Of a DNA stretch of 64,000 nucleotides, positions 8,075 to 26,353 are shown piece by piece. The stretch covers positions 93,820 through 157,819 of the forward strand of contig JAZDCY010000056.1 in the NCBI GenBank assembly GCA_036679645.1, read 5' to 3'. Position 1 is the first letter of the stretch. Each line of letters begins with the position of its first letter. The DNA comes from Gemmatimonadota bacterium (GTDB lineage Bacteria > Gemmatimonadota > Gemmatimonadetes > Gemmatimonadales > GWC2-71-9). The notes beneath the pieces are model-generated. The model saw nothing but the letters and a program-made list of their open reading frames with translations, was not told where the DNA came from and did no database searches. The position numbers and the translations under genes are program-made.

Positions 8075-8115
8075 GGGGCGGAAAGATACGAACCGCACCG
8101 CGCACGTATCAACCG

Positions 8116-8721: not shown

Positions 8722-8816
8722 CGGCCGCCGATGCCATCATCGAACCCGGATTTGTTGCAGAGAGGGACAAAGCATACAGAGGGGAATGTGACAGAAATCA
8801 CCCGCGGGAAACCTGT

Positions 8817-8842
8817 TGAAACCTCACGATCGGGACACCGTA
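8817..8842 (+). promoter_or_regulatory. Putative ECF (SigW-type) promoter TGAAAC-N16-CGTA
   Basis: tgaaac ctcacgatcgggacac cgta matches the SigW consensus and lies 13 nt before ATG 8856. Confidence 0.65.
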
Positions 8843-8855
8843 ATGGGGGGCAGAT

Positions 8856-9374
8856 ATGAACGACGATACTCGACATCCGACACCGCCCGGCGATACGCCG
8901 GCGCTGGACAGACTGCTGGCCGGCCTGGGGCGGCTGAGCCCCGGACGCGGCTTCGAGCAGAAGGTGCTGGCGCTCGTCCGCATCCCGCTGCCCAAATGGG
9001 CCTGGCGAATCCGTGAGACGTTTCGCGGGCTCACCTCAGGTCCTCGGGGCTGGGTCATTCTGGGAACGCTGTCGCTGGCAACCGCGACGGCGTGGTTCGG
9101 CACTGCGGCTTTTGCCTTCCGGTTTCGCCATGACGCGGAGCCGTACGTAAGCAGAGGCAGTGACATCCTCACAAGAATCGTCGAGCCGGTCTGGGGCGAG
9201 ATGCTCGCCCTTGGTGCGGCTCAGCGTGATGCCTTTGGCAACTCCGTCACGAACGCGTTCGGGGGATTGGGAGTCTCCTGGCCGGTGCTCGCAATCGGCT
9301 ACGGCGTGCTCGTCGTGGTCAGCGCGATCGGCCTCAGGCTCCTCATGAACCGGCACGCCAAGGTGGATGGTTAA
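8856..9374 (+). CDS. Membrane protein, putative anti-sigma factor
   Basis: Directly downstream of the ECF sigma. L..LSPGRGFEQKVL motif and two TM segments. Confidence 0.6.
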   Translation: MNDDTRHPTPPGDTPALDRLLAGLGRLSPGRGFEQKVLALVRIPLPKWAWRIRETFRGLTSGPRGWVILGTLSLATATAWFGTAAFAFRFRHDAEPYVSRGSDILTRIVEPVWGEMLALGAAQRDAFGNSVTNAFGGLGVSWPVLAIGYGVLVVVSAIGLRLLMNRHAKVDG

Positions 9375-10696
9375 CACTATGTGGCATAACACTTTTCGTG
9401 GGTTCGTCGGCCTCGCGGCGGTTGCCGTTGTGGCTCCATCTGCGGCTGCGCAACGCGCCGAGGTCGTGGGATACTCCCTCTCGACATCGTCCCGGGAAGC
9501 GCTCCTCACCTTCCATCTGACCGATGGAGCGACGCTGCCGGTCGGCCTTGTCGGCGGTACGGTGCGGATCGGCGAGGCCGCCGTGGGCGGCTACTCCCCT
9601 GGCGGGCAGCTCGAGTCTCAGTGGCGTGCCTTCCTGAATCAGTCCGCGGTCCTGTCGACCGCCGAGCTAATCGCGGCGGTCCACGAATGGGCGCCGGATG
9701 GTCTGGGCGATGGCGACCGGGAATCTGCCGGGATGCTGCGCGAGCTGTTCGTCCAGCTCCAGGCGGCCGCGATTACCACCCGGTTTCCGGCGGTCCCGCC
9801 CGTCCCGCAGATAGCCGGTGTTGGCAAAGTCAACCCGGCGATGGCGGGGGAAATCGCTGACGATGTGGTTGTCGCGACCGAGCTGGCAACTCGCATTGCA
9901 GAGGCGGTCGCTGGGGCGAGCGAAGCCCGCGAGCGCGCGTCGGGGGCCAGGGCGCTGCGCGACCGGATTCGCAACACGGTGCGGACGCGCGTGCGCGGCA
10001 ATACGCGGGATCGGGTTCAGCTTACATTCGGCGACCACGAGTCCCGGTCGGTCGGGGCCGTCGGACCCGTCGAAGCCGCCTGGCATGGGCTGCTTGGCGT
10101 CCTGGGAACGTTCGTGGCCCTGATGGGTGTGGGCTTTGGCGTGAGCTTCTTTGCCGACCGGCAGCTAGACGTCATGGCGGACACGGTGCAGAACTCGTTT
10201 GGCCGGTCGTTCTATGCTGGTGGGACTCACGCTCACCGTGATCGGCGTCCTGGTCATACCGATGGCGATAATAGCGTTCGTCGCCGCTCTGGCCGCTGCC
10301 GTCGCCGGCGGGTATCTGGCCGTCGCCCGGGTCGCCGGGGCCAAGTTCCTGTCCCGGAAACAACAGGACTACGGGGTCGAGGGTGCTGGCATGTTGCGGT
10401 CCCTCGCCTACGGCGTCGGCATCCTCCTGGCCATCTGGCTCCCAGCCGTGCTCCTGGGGTCGGCACCGGTTGCCGGATCGATCCTGACATGGACTGCCGT
10501 TGCAGCCACGTGGGGACTGGCCACGACGGGCTTTGGCGCCGCCATTCTGACGCGCGGTGGTCTGCGCGGCACCTTTGGACAGCGGTTCGCGCCGCATGCA
10601 ATCGCCCCCGATCACGTCTTCGCCGAACCTCTCGAAGACCCGCTGGCGACCAAGGTCGACACGGCCGAGTGGCTGGCAGAGGGAAGCCGGAAGTGA
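9367..10696 (+). pseudogene. Signal-peptide multi-TM envelope-stress membrane protein with frameshift at ~10214-10221
   Basis: Frame 1 is sensible up to SFGRSFYAG. The hydrophobic continuation MLVGLTLTVIGVLVIP...GLRGTFG lies in another frame (10199-10696). Confidence 0.7.
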
Positions 10697-11547
10697 GACG
10701 CCGCATCACGTTGCTGGCCAGCCTGGCCGTGCTTGCGACGGCTGGCTTGGCAAGCGCGCAGTCCTACCGCACGGTCGTGGAGTCACGACAGATGAGTGGT
10801 GAGCGAGACCTGAGTGTGAGCATCGGGTTCGCGGTTGGGCACATCCTGGTCGCACCCGCGCAGGGCCGCGAGCTTTACCGGCTCTCGATGGTCTACGACG
10901 AGGATTTCTTCCGACCCGATGTCCGGTACCGTGAGTCTCGCAACCGGCTCCGGGCCGAGCTCGAGTCGCTCGGTCGGCACGGTCGCCAGGACGCAGATCT
11001 GGACCAGCAGATCGACCTCGTCATCTCGCCATCGGTAGCGCTGGATCTGCATCTCAAGTTCGGCGCAGCGGAAGCGGATCTCGAGCTGGGCGGTCTGTCG
11101 CTCACGGAGGGACATATCGAGACCGGTGCGAGCGAAACAACCGTTCGCTTCTCCGCACCCAACCGCGCCGTCTGCGAGTCACTGCGATTTGAGGTCGGTG
11201 CCGCAGAGTTTGAAGCGCTGAATCTCGCAAACGCCCGCTGTCGCCTTATCAAGCTCTCCGCAGGCCTGGCTGAGATACTGCTCGACTTCACCGGTGAGTG
11301 GAGTGACGCGATCGAGACCAAGGTGGACATCGAGATGGGGTTGGGTGAGGTCCGACTGCGCTTCCCCGAAGACCTCGGCGTCCGGATCCGGGTCGATCGG
11401 TTTCTCGTCAGCGTCGATCGCAACGGCTTCGACAAGCGCGGCTCGACCTACACGTCGCGCAACTGGGACGACGTGACTACACACATCGAGATCGATATCG
11501 AGGCCGCACTCGGTAGCGTCGAAGTGGAGTGGGTGCCCAACCGGTAG
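10693..11547 (+). CDS. Exported LiaF/toast-rack-like beta protein
   Basis: GTG overlaps the upstream TGA. Signal peptide RRRITLLASLAVLATAGLASA; repeated G-A-(A/S)-E beta motifs; IEAALGSVEV C-terminus. Confidence 0.7.
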   Translation: MRRRITLLASLAVLATAGLASAQSYRTVVESRQMSGERDLSVSIGFAVGHILVAPAQGRELYRLSMVYDEDFFRPDVRYRESRNRLRAELESLGRHGRQDADLDQQIDLVISPSVALDLHLKFGAAEADLELGGLSLTEGHIETGASETTVRFSAPNRAVCESLRFEVGAAEFEALNLANARCRLIKLSAGLAEILLDFTGEWSDAIETKVDIEMGLGEVRLRFPEDLGVRIRVDRFLVSVDRNGFDKRGSTYTSRNWDDVTTHIEIDIEAALGSVEVEWVPNR

Positions 11548-11633: not shown

Positions 11634-12617
11634 ATGTCGGTCACGATTCGACGCGCGGGCCCCGCCGATGCGGCAGCCCTGACGGCGATCGCCCTTGCGG
11701 CGAAATCACACTGGGGATACCCCGACGCCTGGCTCGCAGAGTGGCGACCGCAACTCACGCTCGCTCCCGACTACGTAACCCGTAATCCGGTGTTCGTCCT
11801 CGAAGAGTCACGGGAACCGGTCGGATTCTGCGCCCTCGCGCGTGAACCGGAACATTGGCTACTCGATCACCTGTGGGTGTCTCCCGCCGCGCACGGTCGT
11901 GGGTACGGACGCGCGCTGTTTCGACATGCCGTTTCGTACGCCGCCGCTGAAGCACCTGCGCTCGCGGTCCGCATCGAGTCCGATCCAAACGCCGAAGCGT
12001 TCTACGCCCACATGGGCGCACGGCGCACTAGCACCCACCCAGGGCCAGTGTGCGGACTGCCGCGCGAACTCCCCGTCCTCATCTATGAGACCCAAATGAT
12101 CATTTCACGACCCGCTCCCGACGAGTACGCCCCCTACTACGGCGGCTACATCGACCAGGTACCGGACGGTGACGTCTTGGACCTGTTGCAACACCAGATC
12201 GGGCAGACGACCGACCTCATCTCGGGCGTAGCACCTGAGCGCGGCACATATCGTTATGCGCCGGAGAAATGGTGCCTCAACGACGTCCTCGGGCACCTTT
12301 GCGACACCGAGCGCGTTTTCACCTATCGGGCACTCCGCTTCAGCCGCGGCGATGCACAGGCACTGCCCGGCATGGAGCAAGACGACTACGTGACCGGAGC
12401 GAACTTCGCGGACCGCTCGACGGCGGACCTGCTGGAAGAACTCCAAACGGTTCGTGCCGCGACCATCACACTTTTGCGTTCGCTGACGCCCGAGATGCTC
12501 GCGCGGCGGGGCACGGCAAGCGATTGCCAGTTCACGGCCCGCGCCATTGCCTATGTCATTGCGGGACACGAGCGACATCATGTGCAGGTGCTCCGCGAAC
12601 GCTACCTCGAACGCTGA
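11634..12617 (+). CDS. GNAT acetyltransferase-DinB family fusion
   Basis: N-half SHWGYP..W, LDHLWVSP..HGRGYGRAL, SDPNAEAFY. C-half RPAPDEYAPYY, RYAPEKW...GHLCDTERVF, GHERHH. Confidence 0.8.
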   Translation: MSVTIRRAGPADAAALTAIALAAKSHWGYPDAWLAEWRPQLTLAPDYVTRNPVFVLEESREPVGFCALAREPEHWLLDHLWVSPAAHGRGYGRALFRHAVSYAAAEAPALAVRIESDPNAEAFYAHMGARRTSTHPGPVCGLPRELPVLIYETQMIISRPAPDEYAPYYGGYIDQVPDGDVLDLLQHQIGQTTDLISGVAPERGTYRYAPEKWCLNDVLGHLCDTERVFTYRALRFSRGDAQALPGMEQDDYVTGANFADRSTADLLEELQTVRAATITLLRSLTPEMLARRGTASDCQFTARAIAYVIAGHERHHVQVLRERYLER

Positions 12618-12642
12618 ACGCCGAACCAAGGGAAGCCAACCC

Positions 12643-13824
12643 ATGGCGCAACTCCATCCGGGATCAAAGGATCGGCGTGCTCATGTCCGGCGTTGGGGCT
12701 GGACGCTCGCTGCGGGAGCGTTCGCCTGCGGGCCTTCGCTGGTTCCGACAGTGCCGGCCCCGGTGGTTCTTGCTGGAGCAATCGAGCACTCGGTCTTCTT
12801 CATCGGCGATGCCGGCGCTCCGGCCGTGCCCACCGATCCGGTCCTGATCGCCCTCCGCGCCGCGGCATCCGAGCACCCGGAGCGGAACAGCATCGTATTT
12901 CTCGGAGACAACGTGTACCCCATGGGGATGCCGGTGCGGGACGATCCGTCCCGGCAGGAATCGGAGCGGCGGCTCCAGGCACAGATCGATGCCGTGCCGC
13001 AGGGCGCCCGGGGCATCTTCGTCATGGGGAACCACGACTGGATTCGCGGCCGCGAGGGCGGGTTGGCAGCCGTTCGGCGCCAACTGGCCTACATCGCCGA
13101 TGCCGGCCGACCACTCGTCGTTGCGGCACCGACCGGTGGCTGCCCCGGGCCCGCGGTGATCGACGTCAGCGCGCGACTGCGCCTGGTGATGCTCGGCACC
13201 CAATGGTGGCTCCACGGGAGCGAGCGGCCCTCCGACCCGGCCTCCGCGTGCATCGCCGACTCGGAAGCGGAGGTCACCGACTCGCTCCGCACCGTCGTGC
13301 AAGCAGGTCCCGATCGCATCGTCTTGGTCGCCGGACACCACCCTTTGCGCTCAGGCGGGGTGCACGGCGGCAAGTTCGACTGGAAGGACCACATCTTCCC
13401 GCTGCGAGTCTGGAAGTCGTGGCTCTGGTTACCGCTTCCGATTATCGGGTCGCTGTATCCGCTGGTGCGGGGATCTGGCTTCTCGGCGCAGGACCTGGGC
13501 TCGGGACGCTACCAGACGATGCGGGACTCGATCGTCGCCGCCTTTGGCAGCCATCCGCCGCTTGCGTATGCAGCGGGGCACGAGCACAATCTGCAGGTTC
13601 TGGACGGCATGGGAGCTCGCTATCTCCTCGTATCGGGAGCCGGCATCTACGATCACCTCAGCCAGGCATTCCGACTCGAGGGTTCACTGTACGCGCGGGC
13701 CGCGAGCGGTTTCATCCGCATCGATCTCCTCCGAGATGGACGCGTTCGCCTCGCGGTGCTCTTGGCGGATGGAGACGGCCGGTTGACCGAGGATTTCTCG
13801 ATGTGGCTGGAGGAGAACCGATGA
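12643..13824 (+). CDS. Exported calcineurin-like metallophosphoesterase (probable lipoprotein)
   Basis: IGDAG, LGDNVY, GNHD, GHHP and GHEH motifs. LAAGAFAC lipobox-like N-terminus. Confidence 0.85.
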   Translation: MAQLHPGSKDRRAHVRRWGWTLAAGAFACGPSLVPTVPAPVVLAGAIEHSVFFIGDAGAPAVPTDPVLIALRAAASEHPERNSIVFLGDNVYPMGMPVRDDPSRQESERRLQAQIDAVPQGARGIFVMGNHDWIRGREGGLAAVRRQLAYIADAGRPLVVAAPTGGCPGPAVIDVSARLRLVMLGTQWWLHGSERPSDPASACIADSEAEVTDSLRTVVQAGPDRIVLVAGHHPLRSGGVHGGKFDWKDHIFPLRVWKSWLWLPLPIIGSLYPLVRGSGFSAQDLGSGRYQTMRDSIVAAFGSHPPLAYAAGHEHNLQVLDGMGARYLLVSGAGIYDHLSQAFRLEGSLYARAASGFIRIDLLRDGRVRLAVLLADGDGRLTEDFSMWLEENR

Positions 13825-16373
13825 GACGCAAGGTACCCGGCACGGCGCTCCTGTTGGCAGCCGTCTCAGTCGCGGGTCCCTCATCGACGCATGCACAACA
13901 GCGCGATAGCGTCCGGATCGCGGCCGGCTCCCAATACGATGCAGGTGGGTTCCACCGCCTCCTGTTCGGCGGTGATTATCGCGACCTGTGGCGTACCCCG
14001 ATCTCTGTGCTCATGCTCGACCTGGATACGGCGAGCGGCGGCCTCACACCGACGACCGCAGGTGGAGGATTCCAGACGAAGTCCCTGCGCTTCCGCGACG
14101 CGAACGGGTTCCTCTATGGATTTCGGTCGGTGGACAAGGACCCCGCCGTCCTGCCGGACGAGTTGGCCGGAACCTTCGTCGAGGACCTCGTACGGGACCA
14201 GACAAGCTCGGCCCATCCTGCCGGCTCCGGAATCGTTCCACCGTTATTGGAGGCGGTGGGCATTCTCCACACGGAGCCCCGGCTCGTCGTCCTCCCCGAC
14301 GACCCCAGGCTCGGTGTGTTCCGGGAACGCTTTGCCGGGACGTTGGGCTATTTCGAGCTGCGTGGAATTGTGGAACCCGGCGCGCAACGGTTCGCCAACG
14401 CGCTAGAGATTCTCGACAGCGACGACGTATACCCAATGGTGCGGCAGAGCCCGGCACATCGTATTGACACCCGCCAGTTTCTCACAGCACGGCTCATCGA
14501 TCTCTTGATCGGCGATTGGGATCGTCACCGGGGCCAGTGGGGCTGGGCGCGCTTCGATGACGCAACCGTCACCTATTGGACTCCCATACCCGAGGACCGC
14601 GATCAGGCCTTTGCGCGCTTCGACGGCCTGTTCCTGTCGCTGGGACGGGCAGCGGCCCCGCAGCTCGTGAACTTCGGCGATGACTATCCCAACATGGTGG
14701 GCCTCACGTGGAACGGGCGGGAGAGCGACCGGTGGTTTCTCGTCCAGCTGGAAAAATCCGTGTGGGATTCGGTGGCTGCCGCGGTGCAGGCGCGAATCAC
14801 GGACGCGGTCATCGACGCCGCGGTCGCGGGCATGCCCGTCGAGTATCAGGCAATCGACGGCGACCGCATGCGCCGGGCGTTGCGCGCGCGCCGCGACAAA
14901 CTGCTCGAGGCAACCGACCGGTTCTACCGCGTGATCGTGGGAGAGGTTGACCTCCACGCAACGGAGGCGGCGGAGTTCGTAACGATCGACCGACATGCCG
15001 ACGGCAATGTGACCGTCGAGATCACCGAGCGTCGTCCCGGCGCAACTCCCTGGCTCCGCCGCACGTTCGACGCGAGCGAGACCAGCGAAATACGGCTCTA
15101 TCTCTATGGCGGCAACGATCGCGTCGTCGTGCGCGGGGACGGGCGAGGCATTGGCTTGCGGATCATCGGAGGTGGGAGCGACGAGGTGGTGGATTCCTCG
15201 CGTGCCGGCGGCGTCAGGTTCTATGCGACGGGGGTCGATCGCACGAGTGGGCCCACCGGGGTGCAGGTGGACCGCCGCGTGTACACGCCACCAGCCAAAC
15301 GGTTCGAGAGGGAACTGCCGCCACGCGATTGGGGCCACCGCTGGATGCCGGTGCTCTGGGCCGGTGGCGGGCCCGACATCGGTGCATTCGCGGGATTCGG
15401 CGCGTTTGTAACTCGGTGGGGATTCCGCAAGCTGCCGTACACATATCGGATTCGCGTACGCGGTGGCTACGCCACGGCAGCAAGGGCATTCCGGACCGAC
15501 CTGCTCGCGACGTTCTATCGCATGAATTCCCGGATCCACGGTGACGTGTACGTCCGTGCGTCCGGAATCGAGGTGCTACGCTTCCACGGTCTAGGAAACG
15601 AGACGCAGCTCGACCGCCCGGATGATTTTTACCGTGTCACCCAGGACCAATACACTATCCAGCCGACGGTCACCGTTCCGCTGGGAACCCCCGCGACAAT
15701 CACGTTCGGGCCTCTCGCGACCATCAGCGATACCGAGGCGCAACCGAACCGGATCATCGATTCACTCCAATCACTCCAACCGTTATACGGGGCCGGACAC
15801 TTCAGTCAGGTCGGATGGCAGACTAGCGTGAGGTTCGATACCCGGGACGTCGCGGCCGCGGCTTCGCGGGGGGTAGCCATCGACGTTGGCGGCTCGGTCT
15901 ACCCCGAGCTGCTCGACGTGGTAACGACCTTTGGTGAGGCCCACGCCACGGCATCGACATATCTCTCCGTCGGTGGCCCGGGCGCGCCCGCAGCAACGCT
16001 TGCCCTCCGCGCCGGTGGAAAGAAAGTCTGGGGAACTTTCCCCTTCCACGAGGCCGCTTTCATAGGAGATGACGCGACGGTGCGCCTGGGCCGCCAAAAT
16101 CGTTTCGGCGGTGACGCCGCCGCGTGGGGCAACGCGGAACTCCGGCTGCGGGTGGCAAAGATCTCCTTTCCCTTGCCGGGCCATTTCGGCCTGCTAGGCC
16201 TCGCGGACGCCGGACGCGTGTTCCTCGAGGGCGAATCGTCGGACGACTGGCATACGGCGTTCGGAGGCGGCATCTGGTTTTCCTTCCTCCAACCGTCGAA
16301 TACCATAAGCGCGGCGGTTGCGCACAATAGTGAAGACGTGCGGTTGTATGTACGGGCCGGGTTTGCTTACTGA
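13821..16373 (+). CDS. Omp85/BamA-TamA-type barrel protein with N-terminal atypical kinase-like domain
   Basis: ATGA overlap with the phosphoesterase; signal peptide; GGGFQTKSL, IGDWDRHRGQW, PEDRDQAF; amphipathic beta C-half ending YVRAGFAY. Confidence 0.8.
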   Translation: MRRKVPGTALLLAAVSVAGPSSTHAQQRDSVRIAAGSQYDAGGFHRLLFGGDYRDLWRTPISVLMLDLDTASGGLTPTTAGGGFQTKSLRFRDANGFLYGFRSVDKDPAVLPDELAGTFVEDLVRDQTSSAHPAGSGIVPPLLEAVGILHTEPRLVVLPDDPRLGVFRERFAGTLGYFELRGIVEPGAQRFANALEILDSDDVYPMVRQSPAHRIDTRQFLTARLIDLLIGDWDRHRGQWGWARFDDATVTYWTPIPEDRDQAFARFDGLFLSLGRAAAPQLVNFGDDYPNMVGLTWNGRESDRWFLVQLEKSVWDSVAAAVQARITDAVIDAAVAGMPVEYQAIDGDRMRRALRARRDKLLEATDRFYRVIVGEVDLHATEAAEFVTIDRHADGNVTVEITERRPGATPWLRRTFDASETSEIRLYLYGGNDRVVVRGDGRGIGLRIIGGGSDEVVDSSRAGGVRFYATGVDRTSGPTGVQVDRRVYTPPAKRFERELPPRDWGHRWMPVLWAGGGPDIGAFAGFGAFVTRWGFRKLPYTYRIRVRGGYATAARAFRTDLLATFYRMNSRIHGDVYVRASGIEVLRFHGLGNETQLDRPDDFYRVTQDQYTIQPTVTVPLGTPATITFGPLATISDTEAQPNRIIDSLQSLQPLYGAGHFSQVGWQTSVRFDTRDVAAAASRGVAIDVGGSVYPELLDVVTTFGEAHATASTYLSVGGPGAPAATLALRAGGKKVWGTFPFHEAAFIGDDATVRLGRQNRFGGDAAAWGNAELRLRVAKISFPLPGHFGLLGLADAGRVFLEGESSDDWHTAFGGGIWFSFLQPSNTISAAVAHNSEDVRLYVRAGFAY

Positions 16374-16445: not shown

Positions 16446-18078
16446 GTGGAGGTAGTGAGCGACCGGGTCCGACCACTCACCACGACATCCACCAGCCAGC
16501 GCAGTTCCAGCGCGTGGACGTGGAGTCTGGCGTCGCTGCCACCGGATCTTCTCGAGCAATCGTGCAAGCGGATTGCCATCGTCGCGATGGTCTTTGCGGG
16601 GCTCTGGATGCTCCCTCTGGTTCTCAACCCGGTTGCGCTCCGATTCGCACCCGATGACCCGTTCGTGGCAGGCGCCGCGTGGCCCATGCCCGGCAGGTTA
16701 ATCGCGGGACTCGGGCTCCTGCTGTCGCTGGGAATGGTCTTCGTGGCGGCCAAGCTGCACCCCGCACCCTCCGTGCTGTTGAACACTGGGCTCGGATTCG
16801 AGGTCGCAACGGCCCTGCTGATCGGGATTCTCAATCAGTGGCAGCCCGTCCTCGTTCCCGGCCGTGCCTCCTGGATATGCATCATCATTCTGATCTATCC
16901 CGCGATCGTACCCAATACACCCACCAAGACGTTCATCGCCGCGTTTGCTGCCGCGTCGATGGACCCGCTCGGGTTCGGGATTGCCATGGCGCGCGGCGCC
17001 GTCCCCGCGGGTGAATTCACCGCCTTCACCGCCCTGTGGTATTTCCTCCCGGCGTACCTGTGTGCGGCCCTTGCAGTAGTTCCGGTACACATCATCCGGA
17101 AGCTCGGGCGACAGGTCAGCAAGGCCCGGGAGCTGGGCAGCTACCGCCTCGGCGAATCGATTGGGACAGGCGGGATGGGAGACGTCTACCGGGCGGAACA
17201 TCGGCTGCTGGCACGACCAGCCGCGATCAAGCTGATTCGCCCCGCGCTCCTTTCCACAAGCCGCCGGGAGGCGACGGTGATCCTCGAGCGATTCCGCCGC
17301 GAGGCCGAGGCGGCGGCGCTGTTGCGCTCCCCGCATACCATCGAACTCTACGATTTCGGCGTGGCCGAGGAAGGGACGTTCTACCTGGTAATGGAGCTAC
17401 TCGATGGACTCAGTTTCGAGGTGCTAGTCGAGCGATTCGGCCCGGTTCCGCCAGAACGCGCGGTGTATCTCATGCTCCAGGCCTGTGCCTCCCTGGCCGA
17501 AGCACATTCCACTGGTCTGATGCATCGTGACATCAAGCCATCCAATATCTTTACCAACCGTCTCGGGCTCGAGGTCGATTTCGTCAAAGTGCTCGATTTT
17601 GGCCTGGTCAAGGCAGACCCCGGAAACGGGGTCGAGCAATCGGACCGGCACGCCGGCGTTCATGGCGCCGGAGGTCGCGCTCGGCGAGGAGACCGCCGAC
17701 CACCGCCTCGACGTATACTCGCTTGGGGCGGTACTCTATTGGATGCTCACCGGTCAGCTTATCTTCGAGGCATCCAATCCGATCAAGATGATGCACCGAC
17801 ACATTAGAGACCAGCCGACGCCACCGTCGCAACGTACGGAACTCGACATACCACCCGAGCTCGACGACCTCGTCATGGCGTGTCTCGCGAAAGACCCTGA
17901 AGCGCGACCCGCGAACGCCGCGGCACTCGCCCATGCACTCGCCGAGATCGAGTTCCAAGAGCCGTGGACCACTGAGCGGGCGGAGCGTTGGTGGGATATG
18001 CACGTTCCAGACTGCATGACCGCCGGCGGCCCGTGCGACCAGGGAACGCTGGTACCTGCGTTGTCAGTCGCCGGGTAG
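16446..18078 (+). pseudogene. Membrane Ser/Thr kinase, frameshifted in the activation segment (~17643)
   Basis: N-terminal TM helices, GTGGMGDVY, HRDIKPSN and DFGLVK in one frame. TGTPAFMAPE..DVYSLG continues in another frame to 18078. Confidence 0.85.
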
Positions 18079-18089
18079 TCTCCACGCAC

Positions 18090-19514
18090 ATGCGCCGCGC
18101 CCTCCGAACCACCGTCGGCCTTACGGCGCTCCTTCTCGCGGGTCGTATTCCGATCATCGCGGCACAAGAGGCCGACACGGCCCGGCTTCGGAACATTCTC
18201 GATCTCAGTACGTCCCTGGAGACGCTCTCCACTCGGATAGCCCCGGCCGTCGTGCAGATCTTCACGACCGCCCTGGGACCCGTCGCGCCGGGATCCGGCG
18301 CCCAGCGAGTGGGTCTCCAACGGCGAGGTGGTTCCGGTTTCGTCCTGACATCGGACGGGTATATCCTGACGAACGCCCATGTGGTAGCGGGAGCACGCTC
18401 AGTACAGGTCCTGCTCGCACAGGCTGCCGCGCCCGATGCGCCCGGTCGGTCCGTCATACGGCCGGGGGGAAAGCGAGTGACCGGTACGGTTGTGGGGGCC
18501 GATTCAGAAACGGACTTGGCGCTCATCAAGATAGATGAGACCAATCTGCCGTTTCTCCAGTTTGGCGATTCGGACGAACTGGGCCCCGGGAACCTCGTAC
18601 TCGCCTTCGGAAGCCCCCTTGGTTTGGAGACCTCGATCAGTCTAGGCATCGTGAGCGCCGTGGGGCGGCAGCTGCGGCCGGAAAGCCCTATGGTCTATAT
18701 CCAGACAGATGCACCAATCAATCCTGGAAACAGCGGCGGTCCCCTCGTGGACACACGGGGACGTGTCATTGGCATCAACACGCTGATCCTCTCGCAGTCG
18801 GGCGGCAGCGAAGGCGTGGGCTTCGCGGTACCAAGCAACATCGCACGGAGCGTCTACGGGCAGCTCCGCAGTGCCGGGCATGTACGCCGCGGTATCGTCG
18901 GAGCCAACGTGCAGACGATCGACGTGGTCATGGCGGACGCACTTCGCCTTACGCAGGATTGGGGCGCGATCGTGACCGATGTGTTTCCGCGTTCCCCCGC
19001 CCAACAGGCGGGGCTGCAGGTGGGTGACATCATCGTCTCCCTCGATGGAAAGCCCATGGAGAACGGGCGCCAGTTCGACGTCAACGTCTATCAACGCGCC
19101 GCGGGCGACATCATCCGTCTCGACGTGCGGCGCAACCTCCAGCGGCTCTCCCTGCAGGTGCGCGTGGTTGAGCGCGACCGCGACCCGAATCGCTTCGCGG
19201 ATATGGCTCGCTCCGAAGAAAATCTGGTGCGTCGGCTCGGCATACTGGCCCTCGACGTGACGCCGGCCATTGCACGGCAGATGCCCTGGCTGCGCATGCA
19301 GACCGGCGTCGTCGTGGCCGCGCTTGCCGCCGACGTTCCGCGCATCGAGACCGGTCTCCGGGCAGGTGATGTGATTCATGCCGCGAACGGCGCCGCGGTC
19401 ACGTCGCTCGCGATGCTGGCGGCGTTCCTCAACCAGTTGGACGTGGGCGATGCGGTGGTGCTGCACGTCGGCCGGTTCGGACGTCTTCGGTTCGTTGCAT
19501 TCCGCATCGAGTAG
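18090..19514 (+). CDS. HtrA/DegP-family serine protease with two PDZ domains
   Basis: GSGF, LTNAHVV, DLALIK, IQTDAPINPGNSGGPL, two PDZ-like regions and a signal peptide. Confidence 0.93.
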   Translation: MRRALRTTVGLTALLLAGRIPIIAAQEADTARLRNILDLSTSLETLSTRIAPAVVQIFTTALGPVAPGSGAQRVGLQRRGGSGFVLTSDGYILTNAHVVAGARSVQVLLAQAAAPDAPGRSVIRPGGKRVTGTVVGADSETDLALIKIDETNLPFLQFGDSDELGPGNLVLAFGSPLGLETSISLGIVSAVGRQLRPESPMVYIQTDAPINPGNSGGPLVDTRGRVIGINTLILSQSGGSEGVGFAVPSNIARSVYGQLRSAGHVRRGIVGANVQTIDVVMADALRLTQDWGAIVTDVFPRSPAQQAGLQVGDIIVSLDGKPMENGRQFDVNVYQRAAGDIIRLDVRRNLQRLSLQVRVVERDRDPNRFADMARSEENLVRRLGILALDVTPAIARQMPWLRMQTGVVVAALAADVPRIETGLRAGDVIHAANGAAVTSLAMLAAFLNQLDVGDAVVLHVGRFGRLRFVAFRIE

Positions 19515-20910
19515 ACGCGCCCTGCGGTGCGCGTTCTCGACACTCCTGCTGTGTACGACATCAGGCGCGGCAACAGCCCAAACTCACGACGGTTCCGGCA
19601 ACAGCTATTGGGGAACCATACCACCACCGCACGATTCGGTAAGCGCGGTATTCGCCAGCGGGCCACGCCCCGTCTGGGAAACCGTCTTGCTCGTCCCATA
19701 CTGGATCATGGGACTCCCGCTACGACTCCTCGCGGTCGGCGTCGGGGAAGGTGTCGAGTCCCTCGACGAGTCGGGCATTGCCAGTACGGTGGGTGGCTGG
19801 CTGGGTCCACGCACCGGACCGTTCGGGGTCGTCGTCAGCGCGCGGGCCGGCGGATTGAGTGGCGTCGGAGGCGGAGTGGCCGTTGAGCACACGGAGCTGT
19901 TCAATCGACCGGGTACCGCATTTCGCGGGCGGGTAGCCGGTACGTTCATCGGTGACTTTCGCGCGAGCGGCGCGGTGCGAGTCCCCTTCTCGGAACGCAG
20001 CCTGCTCGACGTGGGCACTGGGTATCGATTTCGCAACAGGGTTCGCTACTTCGGTATCGGGCCCGAGCGCGGCGCTGAGGACGAATCGATATTCCGCCAA
20101 CGTACATGGTGGCTGGGAGGCGAGGTCACCGGCGGCTGGGGAGATCAGATCACCGCGACCGCCAGCCTCGTGTTTACGAGTGTCAAGCCACTCGACGCGC
20201 GTGAACAGGACCAGAACAGCGACGACCCGCCTATCACCGTACGCTACGCAGACTCCCTGCCACCTGGCTTTGGCGAGACCTCTAACGGCATGGCTCTGGG
20301 GGCGGAGATCATGCACCAGGACGCGACGGATACTGGTAGGCCGATGAGTGGCGGTATCCGTCGTGCCATAGTCGGCTACTTTCGTGGGACCGGCGGCGAG
20401 ACGACCGAGTTCTGGAACGTACGGGGAGAGCTGCAGCAGTTCGTGCCGCTGTGGTATCGACATCACGTACTCGCCCTTCGGCTGGCGACCTCGTGGATGC
20501 AGCAGATTGGCGACGCGCCCATTCCGTTCACTCGCCTCATCTCGAACGACGATCCGGACCTCCTGCGCGGCTTCGACGACTTTCGCTGGCGCGACCGTGG
20601 GCTCGCGGTGCTGTCAGCGGAGTACCGCTGGCCGTTGTGGGCGTATGAGCGTGCGCAAGGTGCGGGCCTCGACTTCTACCTGCTCACAGATGTGGGACAG
20701 GTCTTCAGCGACTTCGACGACATCCGCGGAGAGAACCTGACATTCTCGTATGGCGCCGGCCTGCGACTCGTCACTGCAGCGGGCTTCGCGCTGCGCATCG
20801 AGTATGCGCTCAGCAACGAGGACGTGGCGTTCCGCCTGCGTGGCGATCAGATCTTCCAGACCTTCCGAGGGGCGCTCTACCATGGACGCGAACCGAACCC
20901 CGCGCGCTAG
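19495..20910 (+). CDS. Omp85/BamA-TamA-type outer membrane barrel protein
   Basis: RYFGIG, LRGF loop-6 motif (DLLRGFDDFRWRD), SAEYRWPL, DVGQVF, SYGAGLR. Start uncertain (TTG 19495). Confidence 0.8.
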   Translation: MHSASSRRALRCAFSTLLLCTTSGAATAQTHDGSGNSYWGTIPPPHDSVSAVFASGPRPVWETVLLVPYWIMGLPLRLLAVGVGEGVESLDESGIASTVGGWLGPRTGPFGVVVSARAGGLSGVGGGVAVEHTELFNRPGTAFRGRVAGTFIGDFRASGAVRVPFSERSLLDVGTGYRFRNRVRYFGIGPERGAEDESIFRQRTWWLGGEVTGGWGDQITATASLVFTSVKPLDAREQDQNSDDPPITVRYADSLPPGFGETSNGMALGAEIMHQDATDTGRPMSGGIRRAIVGYFRGTGGETTEFWNVRGELQQFVPLWYRHHVLALRLATSWMQQIGDAPIPFTRLISNDDPDLLRGFDDFRWRDRGLAVLSAEYRWPLWAYERAQGAGLDFYLLTDVGQVFSDFDDIRGENLTFSYGAGLRLVTAAGFALRIEYALSNEDVAFRLRGDQIFQTFRGALYHGREPNPAR

Positions 20911-22564
20911 GCTCGTCTCGCTGGCTGCGGGCGCGCTCCTGGTTTCCGCTTCGGGAGCGCTGCTCACGCCGTTGCGCGACGCTCCCGTCGCGTGGTACGC
21001 GGATGATATGCGCAACATAGCGGAACCCGCGGAACGCGAGCCGCACATCGTCCGCGCGGCGATCGACGCCACGCTATTCAGGCCGTTCGGTCGCTTCTTC
21101 CATCCCGGGCGGCTTGTCCGTCGGGTCGGTACTGCATTTGGAGGAGATCATGTTCCGGCCGCGGCGAACCTCAATGCGCTGGACGAGGTCCCGAATTCGA
21201 GTTGGTTCACGAATCGCCTCGGGCTCTTCCCGAGCGCTCCCGCCGTCGCCGCGCGGGGCCCAGCGGTGGGTGAAGGTCCATCAGCCCCGTGGACGGTGAT
21301 TCGCCCGAAGACGCAAGGTGTGACACCAGGGTTCGATATTCGGGACGCCAACGGACAGGTCTGGGTCATCAAGTTCGACGTTGCAGGATTCCCCTCGATG
21401 TCCACAGCCGCAGGGGTCATCGCGGGGCGGATCTTCCATGCGGCGGGGTACAACGTGCCTGACGATCGGGTCGTAACGTTCACGCGCGACCAGCTCCAGG
21501 TCTCGCCCGATGCCGAGATGCGCGAGGGTGACGACCGCCGTCAAATGACCCATGCCGATCTGGACGAGCTACTGGCGCGCGTGGAGCGCAATCCGGACGG
21601 GAGCTGGCGCGCTCTCGCGAGCAGGTTCCTTTCCGGTACGCCGGTTGGGCGCTTCGACTGGCGAGGACGGAGGCGAGACGATCCCAACGATCGGGTCAAC
21701 CATGAGAACCGACGTGAGATTCGCGGTCTAGCGGTCTTCGCCGCGTGGCTCTGCCACTACGACACCAAGCAGGGGAACACGCTCGACATGTACGTCGAGG
21801 AAGATGGGCGTCGCTTCGTCCGTCACTACCTCATCGACTTTGCCTCCACCCTTGGGGCGGGCGGGACCGGTCCCTTCCCCGCCGCCTGCTACGAGTACTC
21901 ATTCGATTTCGGTGCTTCGTTCCTCCGTGTCCTGTCACTGGGCGTCTACCAGGACCCCTGGCGGCGGCTCGAGCGTCCCGAGGGGCTCGATGAGATTGGA
22001 TACTACGAGAGCGAGGTCTTCTCCCCTCGCGGGTTCAAGCCACTCGAGCCGAACGCCGCCTTCGCCAATCTGACGGATCGGGATGGCTATTGGGCAGCGA
22101 AAATCATATCAGCGTTCACGGACGCGCACCTGGAAGCGATGGTTGCGGGGGGACGCTACCGCACGCCGGAGGCGGCGCGTTGGATGCGGCGCGTGCTGGC
22201 AGAGCGGCGCGACGAGATCGTGCGGTACTGGTTCAGCCGGGTACCACCGCTGGATTTCTTCACGTACCATGACGGGACAGTGCGATTTCACGATCTCGGG
22301 ACGAGAAGCGGGATCTTTTCGGGGTCCGAGACGCGTTACCGTCTGAGGGTGGCCTACGCGACGCCGACGCGCGACCTTGGTCCCACGACCGACTGGCTCG
22401 AACTCGAGCGGACGGAGACGGCGCTCTCGCAGATCGCAATCCCGGGCACCCCGGAGCCGTTCATAGCGATCGAGACCCAGCTCACACGGGGGGCGCGCTG
22501 GAGCCATTCGGTGACCGTGTTCATCGCGGCCGCGAGCGGGCGCGTTGTTGCGCTCGAACGATAG
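20882..22564 (+). CDS. Exported protein with HipA/protein-kinase-like motifs
   Basis: Hydrophobic N-terminus; KTQGVTPG..RDANGQVWVIKFD; HYDTKQGN (DxKxxN); YLIDFAS (DFG-like). Confidence 0.7.
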   Translation: MDANRTPRARLVSLAAGALLVSASGALLTPLRDAPVAWYADDMRNIAEPAEREPHIVRAAIDATLFRPFGRFFHPGRLVRRVGTAFGGDHVPAAANLNALDEVPNSSWFTNRLGLFPSAPAVAARGPAVGEGPSAPWTVIRPKTQGVTPGFDIRDANGQVWVIKFDVAGFPSMSTAAGVIAGRIFHAAGYNVPDDRVVTFTRDQLQVSPDAEMREGDDRRQMTHADLDELLARVERNPDGSWRALASRFLSGTPVGRFDWRGRRRDDPNDRVNHENRREIRGLAVFAAWLCHYDTKQGNTLDMYVEEDGRRFVRHYLIDFASTLGAGGTGPFPAACYEYSFDFGASFLRVLSLGVYQDPWRRLERPEGLDEIGYYESEVFSPRGFKPLEPNAAFANLTDRDGYWAAKIISAFTDAHLEAMVAGGRYRTPEAARWMRRVLAERRDEIVRYWFSRVPPLDFFTYHDGTVRFHDLGTRSGIFSGSETRYRLRVAYATPTRDLGPTTDWLELERTETALSQIAIPGTPEPFIAIETQLTRGARWSHSVTVFIAAASGRVVALER

Positions 22565-22574
22565 GGAGAATCAG

Positions 22575-24071
22575 ATGGCTACGAACGCTTCGCGGGATGG
22601 CCAAGCAAGCGCCGTAGATCGTTTTCTGCGCCTGTTCACAGAGGTGCGGGGCGGCGAGAGCACGACGGCGCTGCTGCTCGCGCTCAATGTTTTCTTGTTC
22701 CTGATGGCCTACTCTGTCATAAAAGTGCTCCGAGAACCCCTCATCCTGGCCGGTGGGGGAGACACGCTGAGCGGCGCCCAGCTCAAGGCGTACACGGCCG
22801 CCGGCTCGGTGTTGCTGTTGGCGGTCATCGTCCCCCTGTACGGGGAACTCGCCGGCCGCGTTCCCCGGCGCCGTTTGATCAATATCGTAAGTGCGATATT
22901 CGTGCTGGCGCTCGGCGGATTCTTCCTGCTGGCCCAAACCGGTCTTAGCGTCGGGATTCCCTTCTTCATCTTCGTCGCGATCTTCAGCGTGATGATCATC
23001 GCCCAGTTCTGGGCGTTCGCGAACGACGTCTATACGGAAGAGGAAGGAAAACGCCTCTTCCCCATCGTGGGCTTTGGTATGTCGGCTGGAGCGATCGCCG
23101 GGGTGTCGGTTACAATAGCGCTCGAACCGCTGGGGCTCAACGTGCTCTTTCTCCTCTCGGCCGGGGTGCTCGTCCTGGCTACCGCGATGACCAACCTGAT
23201 CGACCACCGCGAGCGACGCCGCACCGAAGCAACCGTACCGGATGCCATGACGAGTGGATTCCTGCCGGCGGCGACGGGGCAGTTCCGTGCGGCGACGGGA
23301 GAACTCAAGGCCACCGCCGAGAGTGAGGAGTACCAACGTGAGACCGGCACCTTCCGGACGGTCAAGCCCGGACAATCCATCGAGGAGACCGAGAAGGAAC
23401 AGATCGAAAGCACCGCGGGCGCCTTCGCCCTGGTCTTCCGCAACCGGTACCTGCTCCTCATAGCACTCCTGGTCATGCTACTGAACTGGGTCAACACGAA
23501 CGGGGGGTTCTTCCTGGATGACTTCATCACGCGGAGCGCGGAAGCGACCGTGGCCGACAATCCCCAAAGCGACCTCAGCACGGGTGAAATCATAGGTTCG
23601 TTCTACGCACGATTCTATTTGGTCGTGAACATCGCCACGCTCTTGATCCAGGGCTTTGCGGTATCGCGCATCATCAAGTACTTCGGTGCACGAGGAGCGA
23701 TCCTCTTTCTGCCGATCATCGCGCTTGGCGCGTACACGCTCGTGGCCTTCATCCCAGTGCTGGCCGTCGCACGGTGGGCCAAGACCGCGGAGAACAGTAT
23801 CGATTACTCACTCAACAACACGGTGCGCAACGTGCTGTTCCTGCCGACGACGCGGGAGGAGAAGTACAAGGGCAAGCAGGTCACGGACGCCTTCTCCCAG
23901 CGCGCCGGCGATGTCCTGAGCTCCGCGACGGTGTTCGTGCTGACGGGCCTGCTGGGCTTTGGAGGAATCGCCCTCGTGTACCTCAACATCCCGCTGGTGA
24001 TCATCTGGCTGATCATCGCGGTGGCACTCGGGCGCCGGTACGGACGCCTCGCGGCCGCAACGGGGACCTAG
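22575..24071 (+). CDS. NTT/TLC (Npt1/Npt2) family nucleotide (ATP/ADP) translocase homologue
   Basis: AYSVIKVLRE, QFWAFANDVY..EEGKRLFP, KTAENSIDYSLNNT, EEKYKGK; many TM segments; GGGAG RBS. Confidence 0.88.
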   Translation: MATNASRDGQASAVDRFLRLFTEVRGGESTTALLLALNVFLFLMAYSVIKVLREPLILAGGGDTLSGAQLKAYTAAGSVLLLAVIVPLYGELAGRVPRRRLINIVSAIFVLALGGFFLLAQTGLSVGIPFFIFVAIFSVMIIAQFWAFANDVYTEEEGKRLFPIVGFGMSAGAIAGVSVTIALEPLGLNVLFLLSAGVLVLATAMTNLIDHRERRRTEATVPDAMTSGFLPAATGQFRAATGELKATAESEEYQRETGTFRTVKPGQSIEETEKEQIESTAGAFALVFRNRYLLLIALLVMLLNWVNTNGGFFLDDFITRSAEATVADNPQSDLSTGEIIGSFYARFYLVVNIATLLIQGFAVSRIIKYFGARGAILFLPIIALGAYTLVAFIPVLAVARWAKTAENSIDYSLNNTVRNVLFLPTTREEKYKGKQVTDAFSQRAGDVLSSATVFVLTGLLGFGGIALVYLNIPLVIIWLIIAVALGRRYGRLAAATGT

Positions 24072-26353
24072 TCGGCCTCGGACCGCCGTTTCTTGCGGAG
24101 TGCCTCGAGGTCTATCACGATCGAGGCGTTCGACTGCAGCAGGTCATTCAACACCGTATCGGCCGAACGGCGTTCGGTGGTCTGCTTCCGCGTATCCTCG
24201 AGAAACGGCCACAGGGCCTTGCGAATTTCATCCGGCAGCGCACTCTCCAGGTATTCGAGCGCGGTGCCGCGGAGGTGCGCGTCTTCCGTATGCAGGCCCC
24301 GGAACGCGATCTTGAGCGGCTGACGGGGCAAGACGAGCGCAAGCATCGTAAACACGTGCTCGAGGCTGCGATTCGCTCGCTGTCGCAGCATCTCATCCAT
24401 GACCGGAGACCAGGACTCGTCTTCCATCTGATCCAGGATGCGATGGCTCTTCCACACCCCCTGATCGACGGCAACCTCACTGAGCACCGCCTCCTCCACC
24501 CGTTGCCGGCTGATGACCAGCTTGGGATTCCGATCCAGGAGGCGTGACAGAGCGCGGCCACAGCGGTACCTCACCTCGAAGCGCGAGTCGCGCAGCGCGC
24601 TCAGAAGCCCATCCACGGCGCGCCGATTGGGGCATGACGCGAGGACGAGCGGAAGCCGCCGCCGCACGGCGAAGTCCTCATCGGGATCGAGCAGCCGATC
24701 GCACAATTGCCCGGTCGCGCGTGGTGCGACGTCGCGCAGGGTCGCAATAACGTCCTGAGCCACAGCGTCCCACGCGAGTAGCGGCACCGCATATGCGACG
24801 AGTGAGAGCGGGAACGGGCGGGTCGCGAGCACTCTGCGAACCGCGGTCGCGTCGCGAGACCGCAACTCGCCGATCTGCGCGAATTCCGGCGTGAGGGTGA
24901 CCGCCGACGGCGAGGACCGCGCCGGCACCGCCGGCCGCTGCGCAGATGCGCGGACCTCTTTCAATGCCGGTCCGCTCGTATCGAATAGCGTCATACCCAA
25001 CGCCCCGGCCGTCTGCAGCAATGCCGTGCGGGTAGCCGCCTCGCGCGCCTCAGCGAGATCCAACTGCCCTGCGCGCGATAGAAGACTCCGTTCCAGGGCC
25101 TTCACGTAACCGCGCTGCAGACGAATGGCGAGCATGGCACCAACGAGTGACACGGCGATCGTGAGTCCCAACAGGACTCCGGTCACCGCGCCGACCGCGA
25201 CCGCGACGATGGTAACCTGAACGATCGCGCCCCCGATCACATCTCCGAGCCGAACCGCGCCGACGTCTACCAATACCTTGGTCGCGCGTTTCTGGCGCGG
25301 GGCGAGCGGAGCGAACAGCATCTCGTAGCCGGCTCGGTATAGCCCGTTCCGCATCACAGACTCGGCGCCCCGGACACCGATGATCATGCCGAGCCGGGGC
25401 GCGACGAGCGCAGCCGCTCCACCGAGCGCTATGGTTGAGGGAAGGAGAGCAACCGTACGCCCGAGTCCCAACCGCTCCAGCGACAGGCGACTTCCGACCG
25501 CCTGCACGATCACCGTGAGAAGGGCGACGCCGGTATAGAACACCGCAAAGAAACGCAGCAGGGATTCCCCACTGCCGAACGACGCGGTCGCGCGCGCCTT
25601 GAACACGTAGTCGATGAGTCCTTCGCCAATCGTCGTGACGAGTACGAGTGCGACCAGACCACGCAGGTATCCTGTTCGAGCCAGGAGCTTGACGCCGGCG
25701 AACGTGCTCTTCTCGGTGCGGGCTCCTGCGCGTACCGCGACACCGCCGCCGCGACGCACTCCTAGGACCGTTACCGCACACAGGACGTGCAGTGCGGCGA
25801 GGATTGGAAGCATGGCGGTTATCGAAAGGAGCGCAGCGGATCGTTCGGCGAGAATTCCCCCAAGCAGCCCACCAACGGTACCACCCGCCGCTATCCGTCC
25901 GATCTGACGTTTCGCCGTACGCGGGTCGAAGCGCTCGCTCACGATCGACCAGAAACCGGAGATCAGGACCGCACCGAGACCGGAGAAGTGGAAGTACACG
26001 GCAACCGCGACCGGCCGGCGGAAGGTATCCACGAACATCCACTCCGTGAGGAGCAGCGCACCGCTCACCAGGAACGCCAGCGGGACCACCCGTGCCGGGC
26101 CGAGCGTCATCAGGACGCGCGTCGTGCCAAACGCGAGCAACACCGACACCACCGCCGCGGCCATGACCATCGCCGGCAACGCCGAGATATCGAAGCTCGA
26201 CAGGAACAGCGCGTCACGAGTCGCCTTGGCTGCCATCTGGAAGGCGATCATGACGGTGGCCGTCAGCGTCGCAGCAAAAACCGCGGAACGGAGATCCCGA
26301 TCAGCGGTGATGGTCAGGCTCCGATGGGGCAGGTGTGAGGGTGACAGGCACAC
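24068..26353 (-). CDS. NTT-family transporter fused to HEAT repeats
   Basis: KATRDALFLSSF, ISGFWSIVSERFDPRTAKR, LIDYVFK, KVLVDV. C-terminal HEAT-like repeats (DEDFAVRRR, DSRFEVRYR, EDAHLRGTALEYL). Start uncertain. Confidence 0.85.
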   Translation of the reverse strand: MCLSPSHLPHRSLTITADRDLRSAVFAATLTATVMIAFQMAAKATRDALFLSSFDISALPAMVMAAAVVSVLLAFGTTRVLMTLGPARVVPLAFLVSGALLLTEWMFVDTFRRPVAVAVYFHFSGLGAVLISGFWSIVSERFDPRTAKRQIGRIAAGGTVGGLLGGILAERSAALLSITAMLPILAALHVLCAVTVLGVRRGGGVAVRAGARTEKSTFAGVKLLARTGYLRGLVALVLVTTIGEGLIDYVFKARATASFGSGESLLRFFAVFYTGVALLTVIVQAVGSRLSLERLGLGRTVALLPSTIALGGAAALVAPRLGMIIGVRGAESVMRNGLYRAGYEMLFAPLAPRQKRATKVLVDVGAVRLGDVIGGAIVQVTIVAVAVGAVTGVLLGLTIAVSLVGAMLAIRLQRGYVKALERSLLSRAGQLDLAEAREAATRTALLQTAGALGMTLFDTSGPALKEVRASAQRPAVPARSSPSAVTLTPEFAQIGELRSRDATAVRRVLATRPFPLSLVAYAVPLLAWDAVAQDVIATLRDVAPRATGQLCDRLLDPDEDFAVRRRLPLVLASCPNRRAVDGLLSALRDSRFEVRYRCGRALSRLLDRNPKLVISRQRVEEAVLSEVAVDQGVWKSHRILDQMEDESWSPVMDEMLRQRANRSLEHVFTMLALVLPRQPLKIAFRGLHTEDAHLRGTALEYLESALPDEIRKALWPFLEDTRKQTTERRSADTVLNDLLQSNASIVIDLEALRKKRRSEAD

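Follow-up and report, generated by a model that had tools for sequence, protein, structure and literature searches.

The periplasm is, to our knowledge, generally treated as a compartment without an ATP supply, and there are kinases, Fam20C and CotH among them, that work outside the cytosol. Among the described systems that come closest to the locus reported here, the noNterm and Metallo subfamilies of the Omp85 superfamily were defined by Heinz and Lithgow in 2014 (PMC4104836), and noNterm paralogues are described in Leptospira (PMC11358297). A mutant in PlpD, an enzyme carried on an Omp85 barrel, has an altered lipid composition according to a section heading of PMC11116518. Nucleotide carriers of the NTT/TLC family, alone or as NTT-HEAT and NTT-HEAT-cNBD fusions, occur in free-living bacteria, and their roles there are left open (PMC5381601). 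Here we analyze a stretch of 64,000 nucleotides from a Gemmatimonadota bacterium (contig JAZDCY010000056.1 of assembly GCA_036679645.1, positions 93,820 to 157,819; hereafter the window). On its plus strand lies a gene for a predicted POTRA-less Omp85-superfamily barrel (P0003, 471 residues, 19495..20910), which overlaps a gene for a predicted exported protein of atypical kinase fold (P0001, 560 residues, 20882..22564). The barrel-kinase pair is conserved across several phyla, often beside ATP/ADP-carrier-like genes and phosphatases. A literature search found no paper describing the module (supplements not covered), and we conclude that it is real, conserved and apparently undescribed.

Results

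A conserved barrel-kinase pair

The surroundings of kinases of the 20882 family were compared in two sets of loci. The first consisted of the 80 best loci plus the window; the second of another 80, namely 18 of the 23 matches from the window's own phylum, 14 of the 16 from phylum-level group G201, 47 of more than 100 from group G202, picked for long contigs, and one from group G204. Fifteen loci of the second set repeat loci of the first, several of them titled Candidatus Eisenbacteria, and the title of one G201 locus (L058) reads Polyangiales. Of the 81 first-set loci, 77 have a barrel, and in the four without one the kinase stands at a contig edge. In the second set, a barrel on the same strand lies directly upstream of the kinase in 77/80 loci, so that the conserved adjacency on which an initial annotation of this DNA had made its case depend was found; two of the misses are cut at the edge of the stretch, and L164 is the true exception. 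In that locus (7180-10688) the kinase gene and a gene for a PMT_2-family (GT-C) glycosyltransferase stand head-to-head. The genome of the window holds three paralogues of the 20882 family, each preceded by a barrel; the two further pairs (G000:C66:66412-69467 and G000:C17:3367-6507) each adjoin a gene for an outer-membrane-protein-like product of 760-780 residues.

A search among longer proteins gave eight relatives of P0001: four kinase-barrel fusions with the kinase first (P0393, P0396, P0399 and P0400), one NTT-kinase fusion and three proteins with an extension of no known type. Because P0393 sits apart from the other three kinase-barrel fusions on a quick tree, the sequences suggest two separate fusion events. 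These in-family fusions support the view that barrel and kinase are partners. The Rosetta-stone argument of the initial annotation thus holds through the four fusions, and not through the fused protein encoded at 13821 from which it had been drawn (see below). At L150 (10694-16774, the same locus as L049), an open frame of 2027 codons runs into the barrel and may be an over-long call or a real fusion. Four members of the kinase family (P0394, P0395, P0398 and P0390) carry a C-terminal extension of 200-600 residues, which in P0394 and P0390 has no Pfam match.

The kinase-fold protein

All four kinase-type motifs proposed for P0001 were located, KTQGVTPG at residues 143-150, RDANGQVWVIK at 154-164, HYDTKQGN at 292-299 and YLIDFAS at 316-322, and their residues are conserved beyond chance across the family. 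In an alignment of P0001 with 136 of 150 listed representatives (50% clustering) that are 500-620 residues long, 137 rows in all, conservation was 0.90 for K143, 0.96 for G146, 0.98 for K164, 0.97 for D294, 0.94 for N299 and 0.97 for D319, and position 296 was Arg in 61 rows and Lys in 55. The roles of K164 (nucleotide 21371), D294 (21761), N299 and D319 (21836) were assigned from motif position, without residue-level superposition. The family is large: of 7992 scored candidates 3203 were hits, and at 50% identity it has 3743 representatives.

The AlphaFold2 model of P0001 (pLDDT 87.8, pTM 0.89) divides into a signal-like segment (residues 1-26), a kinase core (about 128-454) and an FN3-like domain (455-552). 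The best fold matches were CtkA (Z 14.0, root-mean-square deviation 3.9, 229 residues aligned), Fam20C (13.0), Hydra Fam20 (12.8), PI4KII-alpha (12.6) and CotH (12.3), followed by HipA entries (10.9 and 8.9); the top 14 rows of the fold search (VIA) were all kinase-fold entries, with Z from 8.9 to 14.0. FN3 domains matched residues 455-552 with Z about 8. Foldseek returned the same kinase families for this model, with probabilities up to 1.00 and E just above 0.001. No Pfam or NCBIfam family matched P0001, HipA_C and Couple_hipA included, and no relative was found in a PDB sequence search with P0001 or with the family profile. An Atlas search gave unnamed clusters at 0.98, kinase families at 0.79-0.81 and a HipA_2 cluster at 0.80, the last to be taken as a lead only. 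We conclude that P0001 is a predicted atypical kinase fold with an FN3-like domain, which bears out the kinase fold expected in the initial annotation, with matches up to Z 14.0. Its description as HipA-like stands at the level of the fold only, since CtkA, Fam20, PI4KII and CotH score higher and no HipA sequence family is detected; no HipB-type helix-turn-helix antitoxin was seen among the recurring neighbors (clustered open reading frames coding for at least 140 residues). The FN3-like domain appears to be dispensable, because it is missing in one subfamily (L156, L159-L163, L166, L170, L171, L173, L183 and L185).

Of the 129 rows that start with Met, 125 have a hydrophobic N-terminus; in two control windows the count was 0 and 1 of 129. 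A crude lipobox-like pattern occurred in 66 of the 137 rows, and P0001 itself has no lipobox. Judged by these sequence patterns, which are not the output of a trained predictor, the 20882 family appears to be exported by a signal peptide and about half of it is lipoprotein-like, in agreement with the exported kinase first proposed.

The barrel and its tail

The start of the P0003 gene is uncertain, and TTG 19495 was used. The protein matched PF01103 (Omp85) with E 8.9e-13 and 48.9 bits (cut-off 24), and NF047779 with E 3.3e-16, which is below that model's own cut-off. No POTRA family was found at E 0.1 in the Pfam scan. The N-terminus is signal-like and is followed by a short helical-looking region and the barrel; the barrel profile match starts at residue 124, and fewer than 100 residues remain after the signal. 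The loop-6 motif LRGF lies at residues 357-360 (20563-20574) and a strand-13-type LTDVG at 397-401, with R358, G359, D399 and G401 invariant in 99 barrel homologues. The profile of P0003 matched the barrel of the fused protein encoded at 13821 (P0002) with a probability of 92.7%. We therefore assign P0003, from these profiles and motifs, to the predicted Omp85-superfamily barrels of the noNterm (POTRA-less) type.

As first noted, the LRGF-bearing barrel gene overlaps the kinase gene, by 29 nucleotides, and its product ends in GREPNPAR. The accompanying claim that the usual terminal aromatic residue is absent was rejected: F454 aligns to the last position of NF047779 (423 of 423), and because the model ends there, the closing aromatic of the last barrel strand is present and a 17-residue tail (455-471) follows it. 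The nucleotides from F454 to the end of the tail (20854..20910, plus strand) overlap the ribosome-binding site and the ATG of the kinase gene. A strict tail pattern was found in 44 of 69 close barrels, and most of the other 25 are variants of the same length; more distant barrels mostly finish at or close to the aromatic residue. In 37 of the 44 tail-bearing barrels a start codon is embedded at the same site, 29 nucleotides from the end (30 ATG, 6 GTG and 1 TTG), and two of the 30 ATGs meet an early stop. Gene overlap as the sole explanation of the tail was rejected, since its length and residues persist in the 7/44 barrels without a start codon at that site. From the length, the residues and the embedded starts, we conclude that the tail is clade-specific, appears to be conserved as protein and doubles as a putative translational-coupling site.

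Linkage to an NTT nucleotide carrier

We regard the gene that starts 10 nucleotides past the kinase stop (22575..24071, plus strand), which the initial annotation of the pair had overlooked, as the strongest functional clue. It codes for a single-domain NTT/TLC nucleotide-carrier homologue (Pfam TLC, PF03219, E 5.7e-12, 45.6 bits with a cut-off of 21). A profile of its family aligned over the full length with the solved ADP,ATP carrier 9j3n (E 5.7e-33), and the 22575 gene product itself reached 38.5 bits with TIGR00769, the cut-off of which is 387. Convergent with this gene is one for an NTT-HEAT fusion (24068..26353, minus strand; Pfam TLC and HEAT_2).

In the second set, a single-domain NTT is found nearby in 42/80 loci (41 within 4 kb, 41 on the same strand), an NTT-HEAT in 40/80 and either kind in 51/80. 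By group, either kind was present in 5/18 loci of the own phylum, 10/14 of G201, 36/47 of G202 and 0/1 of G204, and the order of the NTT and kinase genes differs among three phylum-level groups. The NTT-kinase fusion P0397 keeps the signal-like segment of the kinase as a linker. Of the 201 genomes of the phylum, 26 have the NTT subfamily of the window; when the genome lists were compared by hand, all 26 fell within the 81 genomes that have either of the two kinase-barrel families and none among the other 120, bearing in mind that related genomes are not independent.

The window NTT departs from near-invariant residues at S47, Q69, F133, A135, G311, F312 and G433, which may reflect altered specificity or drift. 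A second, more distant NTT is encoded in the same genome at C25:759-2036.

Phosphatases and other neighbors

Exported-looking metallophosphoesterases accompany the kinase in 27/47 G202 loci, and a PAP2 phosphatase does so in 7/14 G201 loci; one sequence, P0324, is a kinase-PAP2 fusion. Because unrelated phosphatase folds replace one another, the linkage suggests a reversible phosphorylation cycle. The usual substrates of PAP2 enzymes are lipid phosphates at the periplasmic face, and such a partner hints at a lipid-phosphate substrate. A hydrophobic-moment analysis for membrane-binding helices gave candidates indistinguishable from ordinary helices and thus no support for a lipid substrate. In L163, an open reading frame joins PAP2 to the barrel.

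Membrane Ser/Thr kinases related to the product of the 16446 gene of the window were found near the 20882 family in 26/80 loci, and genes for cyclic-nucleotide (cNMP)-binding proteins formed two clusters of 12 and 5 loci. HtrA was rejected as a core member, being present in the window row and beside the pair in only 5/80 loci.

A second kinase-barrel family in the same cassette

Upstream of the pair, the window encodes a fused kinase-barrel protein of a separate family (P0002, 850 residues, 13821..16373, plus strand). Its model shows a kinase fold (residues 63-373), a beta-rich linker and an Omp85 barrel (506-848), and its fold matches were the TamA barrel (Z 24.3), PI4KII (14.5), CotH (14.3) and CtkA (12.8). 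Catalytic residues are kept, and R102, K106, D232-W-D-R-H, D259 and D261 are invariant in 29 rows.

The initial annotation had taken this protein for the fused form of the split pair, with a shared RDANG turn as a link. The sequences speak against this. The best BLASTP match between the kinase parts of P0001 and P0002 had E 0.83, the kinase hidden Markov model gave no hit on P0002, and hhalign gave 4.6%; the two proteins share a fold class, and by sequence only the barrels, P0003 and that of P0002, align. Moreover, the fused family lies near a 20882-family kinase in only 2/81 first-set loci, one of them the window, and in 0/80 of the second set. RDANG is indeed present in P0002 (residues 92-96) but is a generic hairpin turn, and it was rejected as a specific link: conservation in the 20882 family is limited to D155 and G158, the fused family has the consensus GADG there, and it has Arg (R102, 29/29) where the 20882 family has Lys.

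The genomic context relates the two families in another way. Among the 201 genomes of the phylum, 72 have the fused family, 19 the 20882 family and 10 both. Elsewhere, the fused family stands in rows of Ser/Thr kinase, NTT, phosphoesterase, kinase-barrel and NTT-HEAT genes; in 20 loci picked from the 72 genomes, an NTT is nearby in 6 and a phosphoesterase in 8, and the fused family is present in 6/12 loci fetched around NTT hits. We conclude that the 13821 and 20882 families are interchangeable occupants of one cassette, both being present in the window. They are counterparts at the functional level, because both fill the same cassette of Ser/Thr kinase, NTT, phosphoesterase and NTT-HEAT genes.

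Gene row and assembly of the window

On the plus strand the row reads metallophosphoesterase (12547), fused kinase-barrel (13821), membrane Ser/Thr kinase (16446), HtrA (17988), barrel (19495), kinase (20882) and NTT (22575). The Calcineurin-like metallophosphoesterase (12547..13824, PF00149) has a signal-like N-terminus, its true start is probably near 12634, and its gene is coupled to that of the fused kinase-barrel. The membrane-anchored Hanks-type Ser/Thr kinase (16446..18078) is split into two open reading frames in the window, both pieces matching Pfam Pkinase; the HtrA/DegP-type protease (17988..19514) has Trypsin_2 and PDZ domains. Further upstream on the same strand (8116-11547) are genes for an extracytoplasmic function (ECF) sigma factor, a probable anti-sigma membrane protein and LiaF-like proteins, and an ECF sigma cluster recurs near the 20882-family kinase in 9/80 loci.

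The nearest titled relative (L001, 85% identity) carries the label Gemmatimonadetes. Run X1 may represent the source sample. Its contigs are identical to the window throughout the barrel, kinase and NTT genes and have 23 extra bases near 17642, in the Ser/Thr kinase gene, and 47 near 10213, in a membrane-protein gene starting at 9367. Because of these extra bases, the frameshifts in the two genes are probably artefacts of the assembly, that is, deletions.

Discussion

We propose that the locus encodes a periplasmic kinase/phosphatase module that is supplied with ATP and held in place at the outer membrane, a proposal that we regard as evenly poised. The barrel, an Omp85 family member by profile match, would be exported and inserted into the outer membrane. 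The kinase would reach the periplasm with the help of its signal peptide or, in about half of the family, as a lipoprotein, as the N-terminal patterns suggest, and may dock on the periplasmic face of the barrel, as the in-family fusions and the analogy with PlpD would have it. The linked NTT would swap cytoplasmic ATP for periplasmic ADP, in the direction opposite to its use in parasites. The kinase would then phosphorylate an envelope substrate, and the linked exported metallophosphoesterase or PAP2 phosphatase would reverse the reaction; the genes for NTT-HEAT, cNMP-binding and membrane Ser/Thr kinase proteins would be regulatory. As the class of substrate, a membrane lipid or lipid-linked glycan is weakly preferred over a protein.

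Several observations weigh against this proposal. Neither kind of NTT is found in 29/80 kinase loci, an NTT neighbor is missing in all 8 rows of the deepest clade of a midpoint-rooted tree, and the two other kinase paralogues of the window's own genome have none. The NTT subfamily is present in only 12 of the 19 genomes with the 20882-family kinase, and 55 of the 81 kinase-barrel genomes are without it; at least five fused-family genomes (G031, G035, G038, G042 and G053) gave no NTT match at E 1e-8. Conversely, 6/12 loci fetched around the NTT subfamily show no kinase-barrel in the stretch, and NTT-like genes of some kind are common (99/201 genomes). The window NTT has G311 where 30/32 relatives have Glu, and for members of the NTT family PMC5381601 records transport of NAD or other nucleotides, or none at all. 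The NTT-kinase and kinase-PAP2 fusions were each seen in one sequence only, L164 has a kinase without a barrel, and the fold does not tell protein, glycan and lipid kinases apart (Z 12.3-14.0).

Some of these points are what one would expect if the barrel-kinase pair were the real unit, with another phosphate donor, such as stray periplasmic ATP, polyphosphate or a lipid pyrophosphate, and if the NTT, NTT-HEAT, cNMP-binding and Ser/Thr kinase genes were an optional signalling or co-regulated add-on that fuels nothing. The linkage to the barrel is near-absolute (77/80) and that to an NTT partial (51/80), many fused-family genomes have no such NTT, and NTT-HEAT-cNBD proteins are without known function in the account of PMC5381601. 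However, every genome found with the NTT subfamily also has a kinase-barrel (26/26), the subfamily has been recruited next to kinases of two unrelated families, and in one protein an NTT is fused directly to a kinase. We give this explanation little credence. Uptake or scavenging, which we consider unlikely, would make the barrel a channel through which nucleotides, nucleosides or other phosphorylated solutes enter from outside; the kinase and phosphoesterase would process or trap them in the periplasm before the NTT imports the product. A barrel, a periplasmic enzyme and an inner-membrane carrier are the typical layout of uptake operons. Exported phosphoesterases are frequent neighbors here, and the characterized NTTs covered in PMC5381601 all serve uptake into parasites or plastids. 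Yet the barrel retains the loop-6 and strand-13 residues of the Omp85 lid-lock (motif in PMC11358297), barrels of the Omp85 type are described as closed to the outside (PMC4104836), and a kinase with conserved ATP-site residues still requires a phosphate donor. A PAP2 partner, moreover, suits small soluble nucleotides poorly.

The initial annotation had also raised two-partner-like export, in which, as in a type Vd-like system, the barrel would move the kinase to the surface or into the medium to act on external targets. The operon coupling and the kinase-first fusions do resemble type V layouts, the entry for CtkA, the best fold match, has a title that calls it a proinflammatory kinase, and translocation by noNterm Omp85 proteins has been proposed (PMC11358297). 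P0003, on the other hand, has no POTRA domain and no match to the ShlB/FhaC family, P0001 has no TPS domain, and its model has no beta-helix. About half of the kinase family is lipoprotein-like, an inner-membrane NTT and a coupled PAP2 would make less sense for a released enzyme, and even PlpD, the proposed type Vd prototype, remains periplasmic (PMC11116518). Taken together, these features speak against such export, which we hold to be improbable.

If the periplasmic ATP-fed cycle is preferred, the module likely means that ATP is shipped between the two membranes to phosphorylate a target in the cell envelope. More broadly, and somewhat more tentatively, diverse free-living Gram-negative bacteria may run a dedicated ATP-fuelled periplasmic kinase/phosphatase cycle in which an NTT, a carrier known for stealing ATP in parasites, is reversed and supplies kinases that are anchored by Omp85 barrels and belong to two or more unrelated families. 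This would be a bacterial counterpart of phosphorylation in the secretory pathway and would probably remodel envelope lipids or glycans. A conserved module of exported kinase and nucleotide carrier makes the assumption of a periplasm without ATP directly testable, and it offers one function for three orphans: the NTTs of free-living bacteria, the POTRA-less Omp85 barrels and a kinase family of 3743 representatives without a Pfam entry. The window is useful here because both kinase-barrel families stand in one cassette.

Comparison with known systems

With CtkA (3akj), Fam20C/Fam20 (5yh0, 5xom and 4kqa), PI4KII-alpha (4pla), CotH (5jda) and HipA (4pu3 and 5k98), P0001 shares the fold and the Lys, Asp-x-x-x-x-Asn and Asp motifs, but it differs from these atypical kinases in its low identity (9-14%), its FN3-like tail and its barrel and NTT partners. 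A possible CotH/VTC/DUF4956 parallel was looked up in the literature, without a result that bears on the module. While the HipA toxin is cytoplasmic and has an adjacent helix-turn-helix antitoxin, the family of P0001 has signal-like N-termini and a barrel as the upstream gene. The NTT/TLC translocases and the NTT-HEAT(-cNBD) proteins (PF03219; 9j3n; PMC5381601) resemble the carriers found here in full-length homology and in the combination of NTT-HEAT with cNMP-binding neighbors; in contrast to them, the window NTT scores far below the TIGR00769 cut-off and is proposed to work in the export direction. The available text of PMC5381601 contains no link of NTTs to exported kinases.

Two-partner secretion systems (TpsB/TpsA, type Vb) likewise have an Omp85-superfamily barrel adjacent to an exported protein, but the window pair lacks their POTRA domains, TPS domain and beta-helical passenger, and P0003 gave no POTRA_2 or ShlB hit. 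PlpD (a patatin-like domain, a POTRA domain and an Omp85 barrel; PMC11116518) is alike in that an enzyme domain attached to a barrel stays periplasmic; it differs in being lipase-like rather than a kinase, in having a POTRA domain, in forming a single chain and in the absence of a nucleotide carrier. In Metallo Omp85 proteins (PF00149 with Omp85; PMC4104836), a metallophosphoesterase is linked to an Omp85 barrel, and the 12547 and 13821 genes of the window may be a split form of this layout, likened here by description and not by comparison with a subfamily member. The same article calls the domain a metalloprotease and, in the text available, describes no kinase; the 19495/20882 pair forms a separate family. 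Neither PMC4104836 nor PMC11358297 uses the word kinase in its main text (supplements not covered). With the noNterm Omp85 proteins, finally, the barrel shares the loop-6 RG motif, the strand-13 DxG motif and the absence of POTRA domains, whereas it differs from them in being translationally coupled to a predicted exported kinase and, in the clade of the window, in carrying the 17-residue tail.

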